A stretch of 64,000 nt of DNA from an uncultured Anaerolineae bacterium (lineage in GTDB: Bacteria > Chloroflexota > Anaerolineae > VGOG01): the NCBI GenBank assembly GCA_964510205.1, contig CAZEBW010000004.1, forward strand, positions 3,638 to 67,637, written 5' to 3'. The position numbers and the translations under genes are program-made. The notes below the pieces were generated by a model. It was not told where the DNA came from, ran no database searches, and saw only the letters and a list, made by a program, of their open reading frames with translations. Shown here in pieces: positions 34,816-60,489 of this stretch (the stretch's first letter is position 1; the number at the start of each line of letters is the position of its first letter).

Positions 34816-34890
34816 GTGATTCGTAGGTTCGTAGATTCGTAAATTCGTGGGTTCGTAGATTCGTAAGTTCGTAGATTCGTGTTACCGACT
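34816..34890. repeat. Tandem array of 8-mers RTTCGTRR x8
   Basis: gattcgtaggttcgtagattcgtaaattcgtgggttcgtagattcgtaagttcgtagattcgtg. Confidence 0.9.
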
Positions 34891-38448: not shown

Positions 38449-38580
38449 GGGTTCGTAGATTCGTAAATTCGTAAATTCGTAAATTCGTAGATTCGTAGAT
38501 TCGTGGGTTCGTGGATTTGATCCCGAATTTATGAGTCCCGAGTCTACGAATCTACCAGTTTCACGTTTCACGTTTTACGG
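38449..38580. repeat. Composite repeat block: TTCGTAR x9 direct, inverted partial copy, then TTTCACG x3
   Basis: gttcgtagattcgtaaattcgtaaattcgtaaattcgtagattcgtagattcgtgggttcgtgg ... tctacgaatctac ... tttcacgtttcacgttttacg. Confidence 0.9.
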
Positions 38581-38888: not shown

Positions 38889-40990
38889 GCCTCGTCAATC
38901 AGGTGGGTGAAGATGGTGTAATCGGTGTCCATCTCTGCCTCAGCTCGCCAGTAGAGGGTCAGGTGGATCTCCTCGTCTGGCCTAAGCTCGACTTTGTCCA
39001 CTTTGTATCCGATCAGAGTGACCTTGTTATCCAGGTTGAAATCCAACGGGTTATCAATCGCTACCTCCCGACGTTCTCGCGGGAGCATCTTCAACTGACC
39101 GATGACGACGCTTGGGGGATCAAGTTTTGAACCAGTGGTGGGGTCGTAGTGCCCCACCTCAACTCGCACGAGGCTGGGCGCTTGGGCGTCCTCGCTGATG
39201 GGCAGCCGATAGGCGTCGGCGATGATCCCCCCTGGGGCCCACAAGCTGGTGGGATACGAACCCCAACCGGGATAGGTGTCCTCAGATCCCACTAGTTCGC
39301 CCCCGCGCCCCAGCAGGTGGATAAACAGGTAGTAGTCCTTCTCCTCCATCTCCGCCAGCCCCTGCCAGTAGAAAGTGACGCCCAGCGTCTCGCCCGGCCT
39401 GACCGTCTCTCTATCTAGTTTGAAACCGAGCAGTCGGATTTTCTCTCCAAAATCGTGGACCACCCCTGGCGGGACCTCGCTGGGGGAGACGATGGGCGGC
39501 CTGGCGTAGGCAGGGTGGATGTAGACAAATGGACAGAGGGCGGCGAAGGCGAACATGGCCAGACCTATCACCGTCACCAGGATGTTAACGTATCTCCCAG
39601 ATACCAGTTGGCTCAGGCCCAGCATCAGCAGGACGGATATGGCGGAGATGGCGGGAAATAGCAGCCGTCCCTGGCTGGCGGGCGTCGTCCACGTCCAGCG
39701 AACTAGTCCCGCGAAGACGATGCCCAGCCAGAGGATGAGGACAAAGAAACCAGGTTTTTCCCGTTTCACAGTACTTCCCTGGGCGTTTGGAGTGTTCGTA
39801 AACTGGTGTGTTTTGGGTCCAAAGGATGCGAAAAACCTGGTTTCTGACAACCAACGCCGTCTCACAAACCAAATCCCCAAGCCCACCAGGGCCAGCAAGC
39901 TTACCACGTCCAGGATGGCGTAGGCGGCGGGCGCAACCAAGATGCTGAACCAGCCAAACAGCGCCCAGAAAGACATGCGCAGGCCCCGAAACTCGCCCCA
40001 CAGTTCTGACAGATTCGATGGCCCACTATCTCGGCCCACCACGGCCAGCATGGCGTTGAGGCCGGTCGGGTCCCCGTAAAGCTGCCAATTCCTGACGTAC
40101 CACCAGCCAGCCACCGCCAGCACTACGGCAAGGACGATCAGCCCCCCGATCAACGGCCTCGCCGACCGGCGGCGGTAGGCTTGCACGACGAGGACGACGG
40201 CGGTCAAGATCAACAGGCCCAGGCCGCTGAGCTTGGAGAGGCAGGCCAAACCTAGGACGAGGCCCAACAACACGTAATACGCAATACGCAATACGAACAG
40301 GCGGCGTGTTGCGTACTGCGTATTGCGTATTTCGTATTGCGTATTGCGTACCAACAGAAGCAGCGTCAGTGACGATAGGAAGACCACTAGATTGTCGTTG
40401 TTGATGGAGCTGCTGATGAACAAGAACTGCGGGATGAAGGCGTTGATGGCTGCGGCGCCGAGGGCGAGGTGTTCGCGGTCAGGGAAGACCTCCAGAGCGA
40501 GTCTATGCGTCAAGAACACGGTGCCTGCCCCCAGGAGCACCGACAGCAGGCGGACGAGGTGCACCGCCAAAGCTGTGCCCTGAAAGGGGAAACTCTCCCG
40601 CCGGGTATGGACGATCACGTTCTTGTTGCCTGCATCCAGCGGCGTGCCGACGTTGCGCTGGGGATTGTACCAGAGTAGGTCCTCCGCCTCGCTGGTATCG
40701 CTCCAGAAAGTGGTCAGTGCGCCGATCAGGTAATACAGAGGCGGCTGGCTGCCCTCCTGCTCCCACAATCCCGGCTCTTCGGGGTTCTGCACCGGCAGTC
40801 CCTTCCCATCAGCAAGATGCTTGATGAAGAAGTAGTGGTAGATCTCATCGGGCGCCTCGAAGATGGGCGTGACCAGGCTGTAGGTGATGCCCAGGGCGAT
40901 GAACGTGGTTAGAATTAGGGTTATGGCCCAGTGTTGTCTCATAGTGCAAAGTCCTACGTCCCACGTCCTACGTCTCACGTCCGAAGTCAT
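38882..40990 (-). CDS. PMT/ArnT-like GT-C glycosyltransferase (GT39/GT83-like), paralog 1, with 2 C-terminal beta-domain repeats
   Basis: ~12 TM N-terminal domain with loop-1 motif FEAPDEIYHY; C-terminal repeats ...LTLYWQ...DYxxFxHL...; N-terminus and an internal site encoded by heptamer arrays. Confidence 0.6.
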   Translation of the reverse strand: MTSDVRRRTWDVGLCTMRQHWAITLILTTFIALGITYSLVTPIFEAPDEIYHYFFIKHLADGKGLPVQNPEEPGLWEQEGSQPPLYYLIGALTTFWSDTSEAEDLLWYNPQRNVGTPLDAGNKNVIVHTRRESFPFQGTALAVHLVRLLSVLLGAGTVFLTHRLALEVFPDREHLALGAAAINAFIPQFLFISSSINNDNLVVFLSSLTLLLLVRNTQYEIRNTQYATRRLFVLRIAYYVLLGLVLGLACLSKLSGLGLLILTAVVLVVQAYRRRSARPLIGGLIVLAVVLAVAGWWYVRNWQLYGDPTGLNAMLAVVGRDSGPSNLSELWGEFRGLRMSFWALFGWFSILVAPAAYAILDVVSLLALVGLGIWFVRRRWLSETRFFASFGPKTHQFTNTPNAQGSTVKREKPGFFVLILWLGIVFAGLVRWTWTTPASQGRLLFPAISAISVLLMLGLSQLVSGRYVNILVTVIGLAMFAFAALCPFVYIHPAYARPPIVSPSEVPPGVVHDFGEKIRLLGFKLDRETVRPGETLGVTFYWQGLAEMEEKDYYLFIHLLGRGGELVGSEDTYPGWGSYPTSLWAPGGIIADAYRLPISEDAQAPSLVRVEVGHYDPTTGSKLDPPSVVIGQLKMLPRERREVAIDNPLDFNLDNKVTLIGYKVDKVELRPDEEIHLTLYWRAEAEMDTDYTIFTHLIDEAA
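40268..40347. repeat. In-frame inverted heptamer arrays (CAATACG x3 / CGTATTG x5) inside a GT-C CDS
   Basis: taatacgcaatacgcaatacgaacaggcggcgtgttgcgtactgcgtattgcgtatttcgtattgcgtattgcgta; encodes RNTQYEIRNTQYATRR. Confidence 0.85.
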
Positions 40991-41035
40991 TGACTTAGGA
41001 CCTCGGACTTAGGACCTAGGACTATTCTCACTTTG
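40921..41035. repeat. Inverted heptamer arrays (GTCCYAC x4 / GGACYTAG x4) spanning a GT-C stop/start junction
   Basis: gtcctacgtcccacgtcctacgtctcacgtccgaagtcattgacttaggacctcggacttaggacctaggac. Confidence 0.85.
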
Positions 41036-43332
41036 CTCAACAGGATTCGGTTGCCCATCAGCCGGCCGTCCTGGTCGAGGAGGTCTAAGCGATTCCCGGT
41101 CTCAGCCAGGTAGAGCCCCACCTCGATCTCGTAGACGTCGGGAGGGGCGTCGGGGGCGATGTCTAGCTCGTATTGGTCCACGACGATTTGCCCCCTGGCC
41201 CAGGCGGAAGTGGAAGGCTGCGGCTGGCGGTCCGCTCCTGCCCAGATCTGATCTCCCTCTCTCAGCAGGTGGACGAAGACGGTGTAGGCGTCCCTCATCT
41301 CGGCCAGGCTCTGCCAGTACAGAGTAAGGTGGATGGCTTCGCCCGGCTCGGCCTTTCTGCGGTCCATCTCGTAGCCCACCAGGGCGATCTGGCCCCCAAA
41401 GTTGAAATGCACCGGATTGGGCAGCCCGGTTTCGGACCTGGGCAAGACCCCGATTTTCCCGAAGCGCACGTTATCTCCCGCAAGTTCTCCATTGGCCCCG
41501 TACACGGGTAGGCGTTCGCCCGTCGCAGCGTCGTAAGGCCCCACCTCCAGTTGGGCCGAACTGGGGGCGTAGGTCGTCTCTGGCAGCGTCAGGGTGTAGG
41601 CGTCCGCGATGGCGTCGCCGGCCTGCCACAGCGTGGTAGGGAAGCTGCCCAGTCCGGGGAAGGTGTTCCTCTGGGCTATGACGAGATCGTTTTCGTCCAG
41701 CAGGTGAACGAAGACGGCGTAGTCCCGGTTCATCTCGGCCAGGGATTGCCAGTACAGGGTGACGGTTAGCGAATCGCCGGGTTGCAGGTTGTAGGTTGTA
41801 GGTTGCAGGTTGTAGCCCAGCAGCTTCATCACTCCGCCGAAGTTCATATCCAGGCGATTTGGGATGGCCTCGATCTGTTCGGGAGAGAGCAGGGGCGGCC
41901 TGGCGTAGGCTGGGGCGATGTAGGCCACGGGACAGATGCAGGCGAACACGAACATCGCTCCGGCCAGCAGGGCTGTGGCCTTGCCTCGCCAGCGGGTGGG
42001 AATGAGTTGTAACCATCCCAGCAGGGGCAGGATGGCGAGGGACGCAGTGGCTGGGAAGAGGTGCCGCCCAGAGGGTGCAAAGACCCACTGCAGCCAGCGC
42101 AGCAGGGCGGCGAAGACCAGTAAGCTCCACAGCAGGAGCAGGGCTAAGCCCTGCCATGTGTCATTGCGAGGAGCGGAGCGACGAAGCAATCTCCTCCTTG
42201 CGGCTTGGGGATTGCTTCGCTTCGCTCGCAATGACACATCCGTGAGTTTGGTCCCGTTTCTAACGACTAGAACTAACAGCCCCAGGGCGCCCAGGCGCAC
42301 CACAATTCGCAGGACGGTGTAGATCCAAGGGTGGACGTGGACATTGCCCCAGCCGAAGGCGGCCCAAAAGGACAGCTCCATCTGAGAGAACTCGTGGATC
42401 AACTCGCCGAGGGTGAGCTGCGGCCGGCCGGGGCCCACGATGGCTTGGTGGATCTGCACCCCCAGCGGGTCGCCGTGCAATCGCCAATTCAAAGTATACC
42501 ACCATCCGGCTACGATGGCAACAACAGCAAAGACGATCAGGCATGCCTTGAGAAAGGCCCACCCAGAGCCTCTGCGCCAGGCGGCCATGGCGATGGCCAC
42601 GACCGCAGCAGGCAGCAGGGCCAGCGCGCTCGCTTTGGTGATGAGGGCCAATCCCACGGTCAGCCCCAGCCAGACCAGACGGCGGGTGGAGAGGCCCCTT
42701 CTCCTCAGGCGGACCATGAGCCACAGGGCCAGGGTGCACAGGGCCGACACTGCGCTGTCGTTGCTCACTGCACTTGATATAAAGATGAACTGCGGATTGA
42801 AGGCCACCAGGCCCGCTGCACCAGCGGCGAAAGAACGTTGCCGGGGGAACAACTCCAGCGCAATCAGATAGGTGGCCAAGACGGTGGTTGCTCCCCAGAG
42901 CACCGACACCAGGCGGGCCATACGAACGGCCAACACCGCGCCGCGATAGGGGAAGCGTTCCTCGTTGGTGTGAAGCACTCGGTTTTTGTTGTCGTTGACC
43001 GTGCCAGGCGCGCTGTAGCCCCAGAAAGGATTGAGCCACGCCAGGTTCTGCCAATCGTCGTCTTCGATCCAGAACGTAGCCAAAGCCGCCGTGACATAAT
43101 ACAGTGGGGGCTGGGTGGCCTCCTGTCTCATCAGAGGCTGCGTTTGCGCCAGGCTCTGCACCGGCAGACCTTTCCCGTCGCCCAGCCATTTGACGTAAGG
43201 GTAATGCCACAACTCGTCGGGCTTCTCGAAGAGGGGCGTGGCTGCGTTGTAGGCGATGCCCAGGGCGAAAAACGCGGTTAGGATTAGGATGATGGCCCAA
43301 TGTTGTTTGATGGTCCGAGGTCCCCTATCCAT
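40987..43332 (-). CDS. PMT/ArnT-like GT-C glycosyltransferase, paralog 2, with 3 C-terminal repeats
   Basis: FEKPDELWHYPY loop motif; contains in-frame GGTTGTA repeats (TYNLQPTTYNLQP) and the palindromic element (SLRAKRSNPQAARRRLLRRSAPRNDT). Confidence 0.6.
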   Translation of the reverse strand: MDRGPRTIKQHWAIILILTAFFALGIAYNAATPLFEKPDELWHYPYVKWLGDGKGLPVQSLAQTQPLMRQEATQPPLYYVTAALATFWIEDDDWQNLAWLNPFWGYSAPGTVNDNKNRVLHTNEERFPYRGAVLAVRMARLVSVLWGATTVLATYLIALELFPRQRSFAAGAAGLVAFNPQFIFISSAVSNDSAVSALCTLALWLMVRLRRRGLSTRRLVWLGLTVGLALITKASALALLPAAVVAIAMAAWRRGSGWAFLKACLIVFAVVAIVAGWWYTLNWRLHGDPLGVQIHQAIVGPGRPQLTLGELIHEFSQMELSFWAAFGWGNVHVHPWIYTVLRIVVRLGALGLLVLVVRNGTKLTDVSLRAKRSNPQAARRRLLRRSAPRNDTWQGLALLLLWSLLVFAALLRWLQWVFAPSGRHLFPATASLAILPLLGWLQLIPTRWRGKATALLAGAMFVFACICPVAYIAPAYARPPLLSPEQIEAIPNRLDMNFGGVMKLLGYNLQPTTYNLQPGDSLTVTLYWQSLAEMNRDYAVFVHLLDENDLVIAQRNTFPGLGSFPTTLWQAGDAIADAYTLTLPETTYAPSSAQLEVGPYDAATGERLPVYGANGELAGDNVRFGKIGVLPRSETGLPNPVHFNFGGQIALVGYEMDRRKAEPGEAIHLTLYWQSLAEMRDAYTVFVHLLREGDQIWAGADRQPQPSTSAWARGQIVVDQYELDIAPDAPPDVYEIEVGLYLAETGNRLDLLDQDGRLMGNRILLSKVRIVLGPKSEVLSQ
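42157..42238. repeat. Palindromic repeat element, copy 2, inserted in frame inside a GT-C CDS
   Basis: atgtgtcattgcgaggagcggagcgacgaagcaatc...gattgcttcgcttcgctcgcaatgacacat. Confidence 0.75.
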
Positions 43333-45926: not shown

Positions 45927-48900
45927 TGCACTTGCACCTTGCTCAACAGAATGCGGTCGCCGGGCAAAGGTTCGCCCTGTTCATCGAAAGCGGGAAGTCG
46001 CTGCATGGTCTCCAAATCGTACATCCCCACTTCGATCTGGTACTCGCCGGCCGGTGCGGCCGCGTCCACGATGATCTCGTATTCGTCTACCACGACCTCG
46101 CCGGGAAGCCAGCTCGTCGTCGGATGCGCGCCCCTCATGGGAAGGTTATCTTTTTGCCCCCAGGTGCGATTCTGGGCGTCTACGAGGTGGGTGAAGACGG
46201 TGTAGCTGGTCTCCATTTCTTGCTGTAAGCGAAGCGGCGCTTGCCAGTAGAGGGTGAGGTGCAGCGTGCCGCCTGGCTTCACGGTGGTCTTGTCGAGATC
46301 GTAGCCGAGGAAGGCCACCTTGTCAGCCAGGTTCGCTCGCAAGGGATGTTGGATGTCGGTGGGCGCGGTGAAAAGCCGCTCAGGGGCGATTACCGACAAT
46401 GTCGCCAGAGGTTGGAAGTCGGAAGTTGGAGATTGGAGGTTGGAAGGTTGAATTTTGAAGTTTAAGCTTTGCTCGCCCGTTGGAGCAGCGGCATCAACCG
46501 CCAGGTCGTATTGGCCGCGAATGACCTCGCCTTCCTTCCAGCGGCTGGTGGGGTATTCTTCGTTGGCCAATGGGAACTCTCCCCTGGCCCAAACGTTTCC
46601 CGTGCTGTCTTGCATCTGTAGATGAAGGCGGTAGTCGCTTTCCATCGAGCGCAGCGCCCGCCAGAAGAGCGCGGCTCGCATTGTCTCCCCCGCCCGCGCT
46701 TCGGTGGACGACAGGTCGTAGCCCAGGAGTTCCACCTGGCCGTCGAAGTCGTGACGCAGGGGGTGGGGGATGGCCAGCTCCTCGATGGTCGGCGGCACGC
46801 TGGGGCTGGCTACGGCGACTGTCCCCAAGGCGTACTCCGTACCCGCTGGCGCGTTCCTTTCGTCCAAGATGCGCAGGCTTTGCAGCGTGTCCACATCATA
46901 AACGACCAGCTCCACTTGATAGCGGCCCGGCGGGATGCCAGGCAGCAGGGAGAGGGTATGATGCCTCTCCACGATCCCGCCCACCTCCCAGGCATAGGTC
47001 GCCAGGCCGTCTTCGTTCTCCAGCCATTCGTCTGTTTGGCTCCAAAGGCGCCCCTGTTCGTCCACCAGGCGGAGGGAGAGGGCGTAGCCCTCCTGCATCT
47101 GCGCCTGGGTCTCCCACCGAAGGGCGACCCCCAACTGCTTTCTGTACTCGATGATGTCCCCGGTGAAGCCGTGGCCCGTCAGCCGCAAGCGGTTGCCGAA
47201 ATTGACGTTAGCCTGGACCTGGATGGGGCTCAAATCCAGGTCCAGAGGAGAGGTGAGGAGATAGCGAGAGACGGTGGTATGGGGAAGGGCCTCTCGGCCG
47301 ATGAGCAGGGCATGGGTATTCAGTTGGTAACTGATCCAATTGCCCATATCGCTTTCTGGGTAGGCCACGTACCATAGCTGTCGGGGCGCGGCGGACTCTG
47401 TTAGCTTGTCGGTCATGTCGGTCCAGCCCTGGCTATCGGAGACGACGTAGTAGGTCAGCGGCCCTTGATAATGCTTGACGAAGGGCGAGTCGGCGTCGAG
47501 CAGCACGACGTCGTCCGGCTGAGCCTGGCTCTCCAAATAGGCGATCAGCTCTTGGTAGTAAGTGTTGGGATAGATCCAGGCGTAGTCCACGCCGCGAATC
47601 TTGACCACGTGCTCTGGCTGCTGTTGACCGTGGAGAGCCGCTGTGACGGGCGAGTCTTGCTGCACATCGCTGACGTAGAGCACGGCGTAATCGGCGGTAG
47701 CTGTGTTGTGCTCCGTCAGTGCTTCCGTCTGGCCCTTGAACAGGGGGGCGAACCCTGGGATGTCCCAGGTGGCAACGCGAAGGTCTGTTGCATTCTCCTT
47801 TTGATTCAAATATCTGGCCGCCAGATCCATGCCCTCGCCCCAGCCCGCGGGCAGGATTTGGATGGCTCTGGATGTGCCGCCCAGCAGGGGGTTGGCGTAG
47901 GCCAGATAGTAGGGATGGTAGGGCAAGGCGAGAGCAGCCTGGAGGAGCACCACTAAGCTCAGAGCCAGCTCGATCCCCCATCTCCAATGCCTGGATAGGA
48001 AGGCTTCGATGAAATAGACCCACCCAACAGCGGCCAGGATGTCAAGGGCCAGAAAGGCGGGCAATAGATACCGCTCGAACTTCTTGGCCCCCACGGCCAG
48101 AGTGATCGTGACCAGGGAAACGTAGACGAGCAGGGCGAGTACCTCGAACCACTTCGAACCTCTTTTCTTTACGATGGCCCAAAATGCTGCTGCCAGTAGG
48201 CCCAGCCAGACGAGGGGCGTCGTCCTGAAGAGCAGGCTGAAGGGATAGAACCAGGGGCCTGGGTCGGAGACGGACTGACCGAGGAAGAAGTTGACGGGGT
48301 GAGGGGTGGCGGCGAAGCGGTGGGCGAGTCCGAAGGTGCCGCGCAGGGTCTCGACGGGAGAGACCCACATAGCTGGCCAAAGGGCCACAAAAGCGATAAC
48401 CGCTACCATGCACCACACCGAGAGGGACCGTAGCGAACTGAAAATCGGCTTGGCCCACGCCTGCCCTGAGCCTTGTCCTGAGGCCGCTTCGCCTACAGTC
48501 GAAGCGTGTCGCCGGAGGATTGCCGACTTCGTGAGACCCTCGAAGCTGAGCAAAAGGGCGGCGAAGGGTAGCAGAGCGAAGGCGGTGGCCTTGGTCAGAA
48601 AGGCCAGGCCGGCTAGGCACCCTGAGAGGCCGAGGTAAACAAGGGAGCGATTATGCCTCAGGTAGACGAGAAGGCTCAGGACGGACAGGATCATCAGGTT
48701 GGCCGCCGCCCCGTCGGTGTGGAAGACTCGCGAATGGGCCAGGTGGAAGGGGTCGAAGCAAATCAAGAGCGCGGCCAGGAGGGCCACCCTCCCCCCGAAG
48801 AGTTTCCTGGTCAGGAGGTATACCCCCACCGCGCTCGCTGCGCCGAGGAGAACGAGTGGGAGCTTGGCTGCCACCAGGAAGAGGGCCAGGCGGCGCAGGG

Positions 48901-56099: not shown

Positions 56100-57305
56100 T
56101 CAGGTGATCTGATCTTGCAGAACTCTCTCGTAAAGCGCACCTGTTTTCTCAGCGATCTTCTCCCAGGTGAAGCTCTGGGCTAGTCTGGCCGCCCCCTCGC
56201 CCAGGCGCCGCCGCAGCTCGGCGTTCGACGCCAGTCTGGCAATGGCCTCGGCCAGCGCGACCGGGGCGTCGGGGGGGACGAGGAGGATGTTCTCTCCATG
56301 CACAAGCTCAGGCACGTCCGCTCGTGGGCGGGTGCTGACGGTGGGCAGGCCATGGGCCAGGGCGGCCATGAAGCTCCCCCGCCGGAACGAGGCCCCGTCC
56401 CGGTAGGGCAGCACGCAGATGTCGGAGGCCAGCAAGTTGGCTGAGACCTCGGCCTGGGGAGTGTAGCCCGTCCAAAACACGCTATCCGTCAGGCCCAGCT
56501 CCGCGATCAAACCTTCGACCCTCTTCAGATAGGCCAGGTTGGTGGGATCGCTGGAGCCTACTTTGCCCCCTACCATCATCAGTTGGAGGTTGGAGGTTGA
56601 TTGCATCAGCCTAGCCAGGGCACGTATCAGGGTTTCGGCTCCTTTGCTCTTGTTGAGGAAGCCGAAGTAGGAGAGCAGGATGTCATCCGGTCCCACGCCC
56701 CAACGGGCTCGCCAGGCCTCGCGGTCGTAGTCCGCCGGCGGTGCGGGGCTGATGTTGGAGCCGATGGGGATCAGCGATAGGGAGCGGATGGACGAATAAT
56801 CGGACAGCCTGGCGAAATCCTCGGCGTTGGTGGCGATGACGGCGTCGCTCCAGCGGGCCAGGGCCAGGTTCACCCACCAGCGCAGGGGGCCGGCTTTGGG
56901 GAAGAGGTAGGGCACCTTTAGATCGTGGAAGGTGACTACGGTCAACGGATGGTCTTTGGAAGAACGGGACGCGAGGCGCAGCGGCAGGAGATTGATGGCC
57001 GGGTGCATGTCGTAGGCGGCTGTCTGGTATTGGATGTTGACGATGTCGGAGCGGGTCTCGTTCAGTAGCTCGATGATGCGTCGCCAGGAGCCCCAATCCC
57101 ATTTCTCGATGATAGGGAAAAGGGACAAGTGACCAGTGACAAGGGGCAGCCCTGATCCCTTGTCCCTAGTCCCTAGTCCCTTGACCGAGGTGATAACGCT
57201 GACCTCAACTCCCAGCTCGGCCAGCGCCTTACCCAGCTCGTTGGTGAAATCTCCCACACCGCCTTGCATGGGTGGGAACTCGCCGCTGATTAGACACACT
57301 TTCAT
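56100..57305 (-). CDS. Glycosyltransferase family 4
   Basis: MKVCLISGEFPPMQGGVGDF... GT-B fold with E-x7-E region; in-frame heptamer insertions at 56575-56600 and 57140-57180. Confidence 0.8.
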   Translation of the reverse strand: MKVCLISGEFPPMQGGVGDFTNELGKALAELGVEVSVITSVKGLGTRDKGSGLPLVTGHLSLFPIIEKWDWGSWRRIIELLNETRSDIVNIQYQTAAYDMHPAINLLPLRLASRSSKDHPLTVVTFHDLKVPYLFPKAGPLRWWVNLALARWSDAVIATNAEDFARLSDYSSIRSLSLIPIGSNISPAPPADYDREAWRARWGVGPDDILLSYFGFLNKSKGAETLIRALARLMQSTSNLQLMMVGGKVGSSDPTNLAYLKRVEGLIAELGLTDSVFWTGYTPQAEVSANLLASDICVLPYRDGASFRRGSFMAALAHGLPTVSTRPRADVPELVHGENILLVPPDAPVALAEAIARLASNAELRRRLGEGAARLAQSFTWEKIAEKTGALYERVLQDQIT

Positions 57306-57546
57306 GCTTCGGTCCTGCTTTCGAGAACACGGATGTACAGGGTAGTCCCCCTCTTGGGTGTTGTTGATTGGCCCTCGGTCTGAAGACCTCGGCTGATACA
57401 GGAAATCCGTTGAAACGGATTCAGAACAAATGCGATTTATCGCATTTTATGTCTCAGCCGGGCAATTCATTGCTCGGCAAGGCCAGCAACACTCTACGGG
57501 GGGACTACCGAGTACAGGATTTACGGATTTTGCCTCAAGCTGGGTA

Positions 57547-57586
57547 GCTTCAGTAGATCGCGGTCGCTCCCGTTGAATTGCCAAAC
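57547..57586 (-). other. Conserved ~40-nt motif, copy 2 (see 36865-36905), followed by two perfect hairpins
   Basis: gcttcagtagatcgcggtcgctcccgttgaattgccaaacc; nearby aatccgttgaaacggatt and aaatgcgatttatcgcattt hairpins at ~57400-57460. Confidence 0.4.
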
Positions 57587-57603
57587 CGACTGAGCTTGAT
57601 CCG

Positions 57604-58623
57604 TTAATCCTGCGAATCCGCCGTTATCCTCCCTAACACTTGCCAATACGACTTAATCCGCGCTGCTCGCAGCGGTCGCTTGTGCCCCACCAGCCACTTG
57701 AGGGCTTCTACGATCAGTTGATAGAAATAGGTGACTAGGATAAACAACCGCAACGCCTCTGCTTGCCACGGGCCGTGATGCTTGCGGAAATAGCGGATTT
57801 TGCTGCGCTGGAATTGGATGTGCTGGAAGGATTTGACCTGCTCGCTCGATTGCCCCCCGTGGTGGACCACTTTGGCCGTGGACAGGTAGATTATCTTCCA
57901 GCCTCGCTCCTGGGCTCGACGGCACCAATCCAATTCCTCAGAGTACATGAAGAAGCCTTCGTCTAGTGGCCCCACCTGTTCGATGGCCTCGCGGCGGGCC
58001 AGCAAGCAGGCTCCAGTGACCCAGTCCACCTCTTGCACCTCGTCGTCCGGGCGGTCTGCGATGTAGTAGCGTCCGGCGACGCGGTTGTGGGGGAACCACT
58101 GCTGCATGATCGTGCTTTCCAGGAAAGCGGTGGTCAGGGTCGGGAAGCGGCGGCGCGAGGACTGGATGCTGCCGTCGGGGTTCAGGAGCTGCGGCCCCAG
58201 CGCGCCCACTTGAGGATGCTCGTCCATGTACTCGACCATCGTCGCCAGCGCGTCGCCGACCACTTCCGTGTCCGGGTTCAGCAGCAGGACGTATCGCCCC
58301 CGGCTGACGGCGATGCCCTGGTTGTTGCCCACGGTGAAGCCCACGTTCTCGCGGTTGGCGATGAGCCGCACCTGGGGGAACTCCTTTTCAACCATCGCTG
58401 CGCTGCCATCTGAGGAAGCGTTGTCTACTACGATGACCTCGAGCCGGAAGTTGGAAGGTGGAAGGTGGAAGATGGAATCGAGACAACGCTTCAGGAGGTC
58501 TCGTACATTCCAGTTCACGATCACAATGGACAGATCCATTCTAACCTTCGACCTCCAATCTCCAACCTCTAACCTCCAACCTCCATTTGCTAAGACGGCG
58601 GCTTCTAGGCCGCCGCGTCTCAA
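57604..58623 (-). CDS. Glycosyltransferase family 2 (true start probably MDLSIVIVNWN near 58539)
   Basis: IVNWNVRDLL...VVDNASSDGS; the annotated N-terminal extension is encoded by GGTTGGA-type heptamers. Confidence 0.75.
   Translation of the reverse strand: MRRGGLEAAVLANGGWRLEVGDWRSKVRMDLSIVIVNWNVRDLLKRCLDSIFHLPPSNFRLEVIVVDNASSDGSAAMVEKEFPQVRLIANRENVGFTVGNNQGIAVSRGRYVLLLNPDTEVVGDALATMVEYMDEHPQVGALGPQLLNPDGSIQSSRRRFPTLTTAFLESTIMQQWFPHNRVAGRYYIADRPDDEVQEVDWVTGACLLARREAIEQVGPLDEGFFMYSEELDWCRRAQERGWKIIYLSTAKVVHHGGQSSEQVKSFQHIQFQRSKIRYFRKHHGPWQAEALRLFILVTYFYQLIVEALKWLVGHKRPLRAARIKSYWQVLGRITADSQD
58440..58600. repeat. Inverted GGTTGGA/GGAAGGT heptamer arrays flanking the GT2 start codon (one array in frame inside the CDS)
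   Basis: gaagttggaaggtggaaggtggaagatgg (58443-58472) vs cctccaatctccaacctctaacctccaacctcc (58548-58590). Confidence 0.8.
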
Positions 58624-58706
58624 ACATCTATCCCCAAGTTACCAATTCAGGACTCTCACCCCTCACCGCAAGACAGATGGCCGCCACCTCTCATTGCCTC
58701 GTTGCC

Positions 58707-59684
58707 TCATTCTCGCCGCTCTACCACAAAATTGGCTAGGTCGAGCATGGCCTGGCGGTATTCGTTGGGGGGCAGGAGCGTGAGGGCCTCGCGGCTCTTG
58801 GCGGCGAAACGCTTGGCTTCGGCCGTGGAAGACTCAATCGCTCCCGATTCCTTGATCGCTTTCAGCGCTTGCGCCTCATCGCCTCCCCGATCTCGCCCGT
58901 TCAGCACGCTGGTCACTGTCTCGTCCTCTGGATGGGCCTCCAGGAAATAGAGAGTGGGCAGGGTGAGGATGCCCTGGCGCAGGTCGCTGCCGACAGGCTT
59001 TCCCAGCACATCCTCGTTGCCTGCGAAGTCGAGGATGTCGTCCACGATTTGAAAGGCCATTCCCAAGTTGTAGCCATAATCGCGCAGGGCTTGTATTTCT
59101 GGCTCCGGTGCGCCGCTCAGGACGCCCCCCGCCTCCGTTGAGGCGGCGAAGAGAGAGGCGGTCTTGCTGTAAATGCGTTGGTAGTAGTATTCCCTAGCGG
59201 TAGCCGTTGTTCGCTCCCCCTCTTTGCTGTCAAAGATCTGATTCAACTCGCCGCTGCAGATCGTCATCAGGGTTTGGGCGAAGATGGAGACCACGCGCAC
59301 GCTCTCGGTCTCGGCGGCAAACGCCGCTGATCTGGCGAAGAGGTAATCACCGGTCAGCACCGTCGCTGCGCTGTTCCACATGGTATTCAGGGTGGGGTTG
59401 CCGCGGCGTAGAAAAGCGTTGTCTATCAAATCGTCGTGGACGAGAGTGGCTGTGTGCAGCGTCTCCACGGCTGCGGCCAGGGAAGTGACCTTTTCGGCGT
59501 CGGCGGGATAGAACTTGCTCGATAGGAGAACCAGAGCAGGGCGCATCCGCTTGCCGCCGCCGCTCAGCAGATAGTCCAGTATGGTCCTCATTTGTTCGTA
59601 TTCGATGCGGTAGACTTCGCGCATCTTGCGCTCTACACGCTCCAGGTCCTGGCGGATGATTTTGAAGATGGGGATGACCTTCAA
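58707..59684 (-). CDS. Polyprenyl diphosphate synthase (trans-isoprenyl diphosphate synthase family)
   Basis: First and second Asp-rich motifs LVHDDLIDNA and FQIVDDILDF. Confidence 0.85.
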   Translation of the reverse strand: MKVIPIFKIIRQDLERVERKMREVYRIEYEQMRTILDYLLSGGGKRMRPALVLLSSKFYPADAEKVTSLAAAVETLHTATLVHDDLIDNAFLRRGNPTLNTMWNSAATVLTGDYLFARSAAFAAETESVRVVSIFAQTLMTICSGELNQIFDSKEGERTTATAREYYYQRIYSKTASLFAASTEAGGVLSGAPEPEIQALRDYGYNLGMAFQIVDDILDFAGNEDVLGKPVGSDLRQGILTLPTLYFLEAHPEDETVTSVLNGRDRGGDEAQALKAIKESGAIESSTAEAKRFAAKSREALTLLPPNEYRQAMLDLANFVVERRE

Positions 59685-59700
59685 GGCTGTTTCCTTTCGT

Positions 59701-60489
59701 TCAGAGATCTAATGCAAATAGTGCTCGCGCATTGTCCGAGGTAATTCGCGCCACTTCTTCTACCGACATCTCCTTTAGGCGGGCGATGGCCTGAGCCACC
59801 AGCTTTACGTAAGCAGGCTCGTTGCGTTTCCCTCGATGGGGATGGGGCGTCAGGTAGGGACAATCGGTCTCCACCAGCAGCTTTTCCAGGGGCAGTTGAC
59901 GGACCAAGTCCCGCAGGCGTCGGGCATTGTCAAAAGTCACGGGGCCGGCGACGGAGATATAGAAACCCAGTTCGATGGCCTCTTGCGCCATAGCCAAATC
60001 GCCGGAGAAGCAGTGCAGAACCCCCGCTGGCTGATGGCTGCTCTTGGCCCAACGGCGCAGAGTGGCCATAATCTCTTCGTGGGCTTCGCGATCGTGGATG
60101 ATAACCGGTTTCCCCACTTCGCTCGCCAGGGCCAACTGCTGTTGGAATGCCCGGCGCTGCTGATCTCGGGGCGAGAGATCGCGATAGAAGTCCAGCCCGA
60201 TTTCGCCGATGGCGACCACTTTGGGATGGAGCGCCAAGGCCCCCAGCTCTTCCAGCATTCTCCTCGTCACGGTCTTGGCGTCGTGAGGGTGCACACCTAC
60301 CGCTGCGTAGACCTGGGGGTAAGCCTCGGCCAGGGCCACCGCCGCCTGGCTGGAAGCCAAGTCGGCTCCGACATTGACGATAGTCCTCACCCCAGCGGCC
60401 TGGGCTCGCTCGATGACTCGCTTCCGATCGTCGTCGAATTGGGGGAAGTCGAGATGGGTGTGGGTATCAACCAGCAGCGTGTCTGGCAT
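59701..60489 (-). CDS. tatD: TatD family metal-dependent hydrolase/DNase
   Basis: MPDTLLVDTHTHLDF...; conserved His/Glu/Asp positions. Confidence 0.85.
   Translation of the reverse strand: MPDTLLVDTHTHLDFPQFDDDRKRVIERAQAAGVRTIVNVGADLASSQAAVALAEAYPQVYAAVGVHPHDAKTVTRRMLEELGALALHPKVVAIGEIGLDFYRDLSPRDQQRRAFQQQLALASEVGKPVIIHDREAHEEIMATLRRWAKSSHQPAGVLHCFSGDLAMAQEAIELGFYISVAGPVTFDNARRLRDLVRQLPLEKLLVETDCPYLTPHPHRGKRNEPAYVKLVAQAIARLKEMSVEEVARITSDNARALFALDL

Follow-up and report, generated by a model that had tools for sequence, protein, structure and literature searches.

Inverted heptamer arrays around the start of a GT2 glycosyltransferase gene in an uncultured Anaerolineae bacterium, one pair of a lineage-wide repeat class

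In a 64,000-nt stretch of contig CAZEBW010000004.1 from an uncultured Anaerolineae bacterium (hereafter the window, meaning the whole stretch), the start of a minus-strand gene for a GT2-family glycosyltransferase is flanked by two arrays of tandem 7-nt units that share a unit in opposite orientation. That they form a slippage-prone inverted pair and belong to a lineage-wide class comparable to the short tandemly repeated repetitive (STRR) sequences of cyanobacteria is well supported. The gene belongs to a minus-strand cell-envelope glycan cluster in the order phosphoglucomutase/phosphomannomutase, TatD, polyprenyl synthetase, GT2, GT4, LVIVD-repeat protein and four PMT_2-type GT-C genes, the last encoding membrane glycosyltransferases; some sources name the GT2 protein N-acetylglucosaminyl-diphospho-decaprenol L-rhamnosyltransferase-like. 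Read along the mRNA strand, the polyprenyl synthetase stop codon (58707) is followed by a GC-rich hairpin, six heptamers, the trinucleotide AGA, the ATG, 20 conserved codons and 4.6 further heptamers. The features around the start are:

57604-58539, minus strand: coding sequence (CDS) of the GT2-family glycosyltransferase, 311 aa plus stop (PF00535, E = 5e-25)
58537-58539, minus strand: ATG, the true GT2 start codon (database match, Pfam, only in-frame start)
58543-58585, minus strand: upstream arm (Tandem Repeats Finder (TRF) period 7, 6.1 copies, 80% matches)
58446-58477, minus strand: in-CDS arm (TRF period 7, 4.6 copies, 92% matches)
58545-58549, minus strand: probable Shine-Dalgarno sequence GAAGG in the last heptamer, 5 nt before the ATG, as judged from sequence
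58593-58620, minus strand: GC-rich hairpin AGACGCGGCGGCC UAGA AGCCGCCGUCU, between the polyprenyl synthetase stop codon and the upstream arm

The mechanical open reading frame (ORF), 57604..58623, opens with a TTG at 58623, and its "N-terminal extension" reads back through the GC hairpin. A first-pass annotation had placed the probable true start near 58539 instead, and this is borne out. Translation from the ATG at 58539 is 100% identical over 311 aa to an NCBI protein (P0001), the Pfam domain PF00535 begins at residue 4 of this product, and the N-termini of all GT2 orthologues lie at or just before the conserved DLSIVIVNWN; the start is therefore assigned to this ATG, the sole in-frame start between the GC hairpin and that motif. 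A stronger GGAGG lies at 58552-58556, 12 nt before the ATG.

Both inverted arrays proposed by the first-pass annotation are recovered by TRF, but a few bases away from where they had been put. The string given for the in-CDS array exists as a 19-mer (GGAAGGTGGAAGGTGGAAG, 58453-58471), whereas the one given for the upstream array (CCTCCAACCTCCAACCTCC) has no exact match, the nearest being CCTCTAACCTCCAACCTCC at 58567-58585. On the mRNA strand the upstream arm reads GGAGGTT, GGAGGTT, AGAGGTT, GGAGATT, GGAGGTC, GAAGGTT (unit AACCTCC on the plus strand) and ends 3 nt (AGA) before the ATG; every unit resembles a Shine-Dalgarno sequence. The in-CDS arm reads CTTCCAC, CTTCCAC, CTTCCAA, CTTCC (TRF unit GGAAGGT on the plus strand, CTTCCAC/CCACCTT on the mRNA strand) and consists of anti-Shine-Dalgarno-like units. 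The arms are not the exact reverse complements they had been taken for: complementarity is 71% over 31 nt (58446-58476 against 58554-58584), higher with G-U pairs. A 21-mer probe, (GGAGGTT)3 with at most three mismatches, matches the window 8 times, where shuffles predict 0.00. Two other glycosyltransferase genes of the cluster also contain GGAGGTT-family arrays (plus strand; CTCCAAC on the mRNA strand), at 46421-46448 and 56585-56598, so that on a long transcript the arm at 58543-58585 could pair with more than one partner.

At the protein level, the in-CDS arm encodes residues S22-R32 (SIFHLPPSNFR), in agreement with the FHLPPSNFR stretch previously read from it. An AlphaFold2 (AF2) model (predicted local distance difference test score, pLDDT, 87) has a helix at residues 13-24, a loop at 25-32 and a strand at 33-39, which places these residues at the end of helix α1 and in the α1-β2 loop. 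This loop is the only internal length-variable region of the GT2 protein, and in different clades it carries at least eight unrelated 7- or 8-nt units. The position of the array within the gene is explained by the tolerance of the loop to insertions and deletions, which suffices alone. A preference for start-proximal sites within the CDS was considered and was not discriminated, as the arrays are confined to the α1-β2 loop, also the sole region of variable length.

The locus can be followed through its relatives. More than 100 close GT2 orthologues occur in Anaerolineae and Chloroflexota metagenome-assembled genomes, and 160 orthologous loci (L numbers below) were retrieved. A monophyletic group of about 19 distinct sequences shares the layout of GC hairpin, upstream arm, N-terminal codons and CDS arm, with 3-10 units in the upstream arm, (TTGGAGR)n, and 3-11 in the CDS arm, (CTCCAAC/CTTCCAA/CTTCCAG)n. 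Because three heptamers equal seven codons, the CDS arm appears in the protein as a 7-residue repeat, (F/L)Q(L/P)P(T/A)SN (e.g. LQPPTSN), in 0-4 copies among orthologues, and loop DNA lengths change in 21-nt steps (36/57 and 45/66/87 nt). Between L005 and L086/L088 the CDS is 99.8% identical and the leaders differ by exactly one heptamer; this difference is direct evidence of 7-nt slippage at the GT2 locus.

The upstream arm also carries start codons. In 14 of 17 clade loci (the window, WIN, and L001 excluded), an in-frame TTG lies inside the array, 24 nt before the IVIVNWN anchor, giving the N-terminus MEIGSDLS, and at the same loci the codon preceding GAT-CTG-TCC is not a start. In the window, TTA has replaced the in-frame TTG of the array, and an ATG occupies the ancestral position instead. 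A start codon inside a tandem repeat has a particular property: an in-frame TTG recurs once per three units, whatever the copy number. Truncated database proteins starting "MSS.." were considered as frameshifted alleles and rejected, their DNA being in frame with the upstream TTG. These starts and the database extensions of the "LEIGDWR.." type are gene-caller artefacts; such arrays mislead gene callers into false N-terminal extensions and false internal starts.

Pairing of the arrays in the minus-strand RNA, as the first-pass annotation had expected, is found in the predicted structures. The segment 58430-58610 folds at -65.5 kcal/mol (z-score (z) -2.63; 1 of 200 shuffles equally good) and 58395-58592 at -72.0 kcal/mol (z -2.65); overall, the predicted z of the array pairing is about -2.6 to -2.9. 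Minimum free energy (MFE) and centroid structures both join the arrays in one long imperfect stem. The start and its ribosome-binding site (RBS) had been pictured inside the loop of such a stem; the arrays do pair around the start, but the Shine-Dalgarno sequence lies within the upstream arm, where it is predicted to be paired, and the AUG sits 3 nt beyond the arm in a small local hairpin. The duplex of the two window arms (-35.1 kcal/mol) exceeds that of a shuffled downstream arm (-27.3 +/- 4.3 kcal/mol) with a z of -1.8, and a merely reversed arm pairs better (-39.3 kcal/mol). Much of the window pairing is therefore a GGA/GGU-rich arm meeting a CCU/UCC-rich one, and complementarity in the window stands only marginally above the composition expectation.

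The predicted accessibility of the start changes with the arms. Around the window AUG (-18 to +6) the opening cost rises from 10.9 to 14.3 kcal/mol (+3.4) when the downstream arm is present. Across the clade the rise is +3 to +28 kcal/mol (median about 11), and in outgroups without arrays it is about 0; the window pair is among the weakest. All 19 clade sequences are predicted to form 20-53 long-range inter-arm pairs, with z from -1.0 to -6.3.

These predictions might be taken to mean that the hairpin is a regulated switch, as the first-pass annotation had suggested. In such a switch the stem would hide the RBS and start until temperature, a protein, a small RNA or upstream translation opens it and turns GT2 on. 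The clade-wide inter-arm pairing, an opening cost that goes up only where both arms exist, the persistence of both arms across a monophyletic clade despite copy-number turnover, and the pairing of Shine-Dalgarno-like upstream units with anti-Shine-Dalgarno-like CDS units are all in its favour. An RBS-sequestering element should have its Shine-Dalgarno sequence or start paired in the favoured fold, and this is the case, with a small effect in the window. It should also show compensatory change, and none was found: in a 19 x 19 matrix of duplex energies, corrected for row and column effects, cognate arms have no advantage over non-cognate ones (mean residual +1.66, P = 0.84), and in a clade-wide test for G-U-dependent selection on RNA, sense and antisense strands fold alike, with no consistent bias. 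Nor did a second conformation or a sensor emerge, a trans-acting factor being possible. No alternative fold of similar energy was found, and an Rfam scan of 57000-60000 gave no match at the arrays and two sub-threshold matches elsewhere (mir-25 and Acido-Lenti-1).

The only candidate for the second state of such a switch was a perfect 12-nt inverted repeat that brackets the in-CDS arm:

58481-58492, minus strand: 5' half, GAAGCGUUGUCU, codons LKRCL
58415-58426, minus strand: partner, AGACAACGCUUC, codons VDNAS

It was rejected in that role, since enforcing the stem 58481-92/58415-26 gives a fold 19 kcal/mol worse than the MFE, and this is the best competing fold. It was also rejected as a selected stem for lack of co-variation, since on average 8.0 of 12 positions are pairable in cognate and 7.98 in non-cognate combinations of 112 orthologues; the repeat reflects conserved coding motifs. 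Natural variants with one arm, a flipped arm or non-complementary arms speak against a switch as well, as do the weak pairing and small opening effect in the window and the existence of like arrays within coding sequence, with no RBS involved. A hairpin at the GT2 start is plausible from the modelling; a switch is unsupported, and we consider it quite improbable.

A second possibility is a contingency locus, in which frameshifts caused by slipped-strand mispairing of the in-CDS heptamers would switch GT2 ON and OFF among the members of a population. In its favour, the CDS of this cell-envelope glycosyltransferase contains a heptamer array, whose unit length is not a multiple of 3, and copy number varies among relatives. 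Repeat-number polymorphism between close strains is seen as the one-unit change described above, though in the leader arm; the CDS arm differs only between species. All 112 distinct orthologous sequences are in frame, an observation that is weakened by their ascertainment through protein similarity and is not decisive. CDS length changes in steps of 21 or 24 nt, the array (4.6 copies, 92%) is short and imperfect and thus a poor slippage substrate, and the same repeat class occurs in many genes unrelated to the cell surface and in intergenic DNA. Phase variation of this kind is highly unlikely here.

The first-pass annotation had singled out the GT2 locus. The window contains about 20 such arrays (period 7 or 8), each with a unit of its own, and their class extends through the lineage. 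A census of arrays with at least 3 copies covered the window and the 160 loci (1.10 Mb): the period is 7 in 175 of 238 arrays, 8 in 33, 9 in 11 and any other in at most 7; within the window it is 7 in 17 of 22. Units are diverse (97 distinct ones in 172 non-redundant arrays), the commonest family being CTCCAAC/GTTGGAG, which also turns up away from GT2-related sites and in distant Anaerolineae. Density is 226-312 arrays per Mb in the window and close relatives but only 50-85 per Mb among distant Anaerolineae; many loci lack arrays altogether. With starts judged by eye, about 11 of the 25 arrays of the window fall well within long ORFs, and the others are intergenic or at gene ends. A search of the accessible literature found no description, for Chloroflexota, of 7-nt arrays in such numbers, mostly as inverted pairs and often in frame.

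Inverted pairing is also a property of the class. Among 36 neighbouring array pairs, 13 are inverted at no more than one mismatch and none is direct. The other pairs in the window have arms 0-13 nt apart and are predicted to form tight hairpins (z -3.8 to -5.5):

40260-40360: inverted-pair hairpin, z -5.5
40930-41035: inverted-pair hairpin, z -4.6
57110-57190: inverted-pair hairpin, z -4.1
1755-1860: inverted-pair hairpin, z -3.8

The GT2 pair is unusual only in its arm spacing of 65-100 nt, with the start and 20-25 conserved codons in between. The second of these hairpins lies at the 40987/40990 GT-C junction, where similar inverted arrays had been announced and are indeed present. On the minus strand, its 5' arm occupies the last codons of the upstream gene; its 3' arm consists of GTAGGAC units, with a Shine-Dalgarno-like AGGA, just upstream of an ATG at 40942-40940. 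This ATG is likely the true start of the junction gene, as the paralogues at 43332 and 45926 have N-termini that match MRQHWAITLILT. The hairpin has a predicted energy of -43 kcal/mol, and its geometry is that expected for translational coupling. Two further inverted heptamer pairs are complete and in frame within genes, at 40268-40350 (a PMT_2-type GT-C gene, ..RNTQYEIRNTQYATRRLFVLRIAYYV..) and 57120-57181 (GT4 N-terminal domain), with strong mRNA hairpins predicted for both (z -5.5 and -4.1). Other repeats, at 34818-34880 and 38452-38517, each stand just upstream of one start of a convergent gene pair (34906 on the plus strand, 38437 on the minus strand) and therefore flank that pair as direct repeats.

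Variant architectures exist among the orthologues, outside the shared clade layout. In L103 the upstream array is flipped in orientation and the CDS array is missing, and in L049 and L153 both arms lie within the protein loop. L096 and L097/L098/L101/L111 have an identical N-terminal region with a 3-unit CTCCAAC array, and the rest of the protein falls in different parts of the tree, which suggests recombination within the gene near the array.

A further element is associated with some of these sites. It is about 24 nt long, CCTGTCCTGAGC(nnn)GCCGAAGGG, and in some relatives either arm or the GC-hairpin loop is interrupted by it; in L082/83 it is present in both arms in opposite orientation, and in the CDS arm it adds ..PILRRASGQAS.. 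to the protein. Copies were located as follows:

At arrays or hairpin: L001:4962-4984; L008 (minus) about 5090; L082:2969 and (minus) 3081; L087:2962; L090:197; L006/L091 in the hairpin loop
At further sites: L001 (minus) 6341; L087:1366; L093:1492; L106:2844; L122:3939

Copies are also found at sites unrelated to arrays, and a pattern search of the window gave no match. The element has the appearance of a very small mobile or dispersed repeat with a preference for heptamer arrays and hairpins, and it recalls the small dispersed repeat (SDR) elements of cyanobacteria.

The explanation towards which this evidence leans, though only a little beyond an even chance, is that a slippage-prone inverted heptamer pair of the STRR-like class has been co-opted as leader and Shine-Dalgarno sequence and damps translation according to copy number, without being a switch. 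The CDS arm lies in the only indel-tolerant loop of GT2, where three heptamers add one 7-residue repeat. The upstream arm would have become the leader, supplying the Shine-Dalgarno sequence and, in most relatives, the array-internal TTG start. With a shared unit in opposite orientation, a long imperfect mRNA stem could form in any register and at any copy numbers, burying the initiation region to a degree set by the length and match of the arms. A constitutive, copy-number-dependent damping of translation is the effect expected from this geometry, an evolutionary tuning knob that slippage would turn by 7 nt at a time in the leader and by 21 nt in the CDS. Ribosomes would probably load mostly before the downstream arm is transcribed; this co-transcriptional loading, like any effect on translation, we infer from the modelled structures. 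The arrays, their family, the copy-number variation, the start codons and the predicted pairing are shown by the analysis itself. The window genome may represent a relaxed version, with a new ATG just outside the arm, TTA in place of the array TTG, and CTTCCAC as the CDS unit after mutation from CTCCAAC/CTTCCAA.

Several points weigh against this explanation. The absence of co-variation and the strand symmetry fit an origin at the DNA level, and the translational effect could therefore be nil. L092 and L094 have in place of the CDS arm an unrelated 8-mer array (CCAATTTA) that is not complementary, and L096-98, L101, L111 and L136 have the CDS array and no upstream array. A promoter and terminator scan of 58300-58900 gave zero minus-strand calls. 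By the energy models, a stem of 10-28 kcal/mol would nearly silence a conserved gene at equilibrium, so that either the stem is absent in vivo or kinetic escape is real. Copy-number-dependent damping also leaves the preference for 7 nt unexplained.

Much of this would be accommodated if the arrays were a neutral by-product of a lineage-specific mutational process (7-nt slippage together with hairpin-templated copying) with no consequence for expression. The stem would then never matter, ribosomes and helicases keeping it open. Strand symmetry and missing co-variation agree with such a process, as do the turnover of unrelated units at the same loop, the indel tolerance that fully accounts for their location, and the ubiquity and diversity of arrays. 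It has more difficulty with the start codon and Shine-Dalgarno sequence lying inside the array in most relatives, which makes the array relevant to initiation, with the large occlusion predicted in several relatives, and with the clade-wide retention of both arms. Pure neutrality seems rather unlikely.

The favoured damping explanation could also be a local instance of something broader, namely a lineage-general evolvable device at translation starts and gene junctions, with repeat number determining its output. The Shine-Dalgarno sequence or start would be located in one arm and the complement of that arm in neighbouring coding sequence, either the gene's own CDS (as in GT2) or the 3' end of the upstream gene (as at the 40990 GT-C junction, with its coupling geometry). 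Translation would then be tuned and coupled by repeats genome-wide, and the system might involve a dedicated RNA- or DNA-binding factor behind the 7-nt period, as well as the element of about 24 nt as a mobile element that targets the arrays. Such a device is doubtful.

The surroundings of the pair contain further features. The GC hairpin (-19.3 kcal/mol, z -2.2) is kept in the array clade and in outgroups; in the latter it is terminator-like and followed by TTTTCAC, while in the window the U-tract is eroded and the terminator scan made no call on 58593-58620. At the 5' edge of the upstream arm is a short reading frame, out of frame with GT2, whose ATG position is occupied by an ATG in about half of the clade:

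58569-58586, minus strand: five-codon upstream ORF, AUG GAG GUU GGA GGU UAG, a reading of the sequence

An 8-nt array (AATGAGGC on the mRNA strand) at 58690-58711 spans the polyprenyl synthetase stop codon and ends just beyond it; it is also present at L013:4830-4868 and, expanded to 86 nt, at L082:2738-2823. Downstream of GT2, the 298-nt gap before GT4 holds the sub-threshold Acido-Lenti-1 RNA match (57444-57477, minus strand; 22.7 bits vs a gathering score of 37, E = 0.031).

The main significance of these observations lies in the lineage-wide repeat class rather than in the single GT2 stem. Regardless of function, arrays of 7-nt units number in the hundreds per megabase in this uncultured Anaerolineae lineage, mostly in inverted pairs and many of them in frame within proteins. 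If the arms do modulate initiation, they would constitute a natural register-independent hairpin in free-living bacteria, with strength set by repeat number, and would tie 7-nt slippage directly to the translational output of cell-envelope glycan genes. Why period 7 should be preferred, here as in cyanobacterial STRRs and further heptamer repeats, has long been a puzzle, and an array-rich lineage could make it tractable.

Among known systems, the phase-variable glycosyltransferases of pathogen contingency loci share with GT2 a short-unit repeat of variable copy number in or upstream of a surface-glycan gene; they differ in that no OFF alleles were seen here (112 sequences), the repeats are imperfect and short, the hosts are free-living, and the class is not restricted to surface genes. 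Rickettsia palindromic elements (RPEs), said to have been described by Ogata et al. in 2000, are reportedly in-frame repeat insertions in protein genes. Like the GT2 arrays, they are hairpin-capable repeats in frame in conserved genes that add a peptide at tolerant surface positions. An RPE is one mobile consensus element of roughly 100-150 bp, whereas the heptamers here are generated locally in tandem, with another unit at each site. Small dispersed repeats in heptamer arrays have reportedly been described as well, by Elhai et al. in 2008 (as cited in PMC3116915).

Heptamer direct repeats of the unit TAACTGA stand upstream of start codons in marine Beggiatoaceae, some Cyanobacteria and Bacteroidetes, show 7-nt indels between strains and have been proposed to act in translational regulation (PMC4679880). 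The same source cites heptamers as the most abundant longer-unit simple repeat class in many prokaryotes (Mrazek et al. 2007, via PMC4679880). The GT2 arrays resemble the TAACTGA repeats in ending a few nucleotides before starts and changing in 7-nt steps. There, however, a single heptamer is used genome-wide, as direct repeats only and without Shine-Dalgarno character, whereas here units are locus-specific, inverted and Shine-Dalgarno-like.

STRR heptamers of filamentous cyanobacteria are tandem 7-bp units in dispersed arrays that form hairpins in leaders or between genes, e.g. hupS-hupL, and roles in transcript stability or translational coupling have been proposed, their function still being debated (PMC2670836). 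The likeness to the present class is considerable: tandem 7-nt units run head-to-tail (TRF period 7 in both GT2 arms), and arrays are many, dispersed and dominated by period 7, with the counts and density given above. The STRRs of heterocystous cyanobacteria fall into a few genome-wide sequence families (STRR1-3 type). Here the diversity of units is far from a few families, a locus-specific unit is common to both arms of a pair, the host phylum is Chloroflexota (Anaerolineae), and about half of the window arrays appear to lie inside coding regions; with no small set of families, the class is therefore an STRR analogue and not a strict member.

In the hmw1A 5' untranslated region (UTR) of Haemophilus influenzae, a long hairpin is formed by (ATCTTTC)n as its left arm and a complementary sequence as its right arm; expression falls as the repeat number rises, slippage alters this number, and processing by RNase III is required (PMC12721329). 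The right arm there is G-rich, non-repetitive UTR and the arrays are long (at least 11 units), whereas GT2 has a heptamer array of the CDS as its right arm and arrays of 4-6 units, and its hairpin, at a leader for which the promoter scan made no call, is predicted. Common to both is a leader heptamer array that serves, or in GT2 is predicted to serve, as one arm of a long hairpin, and the hmw1A leader is the closest mechanistic precedent.

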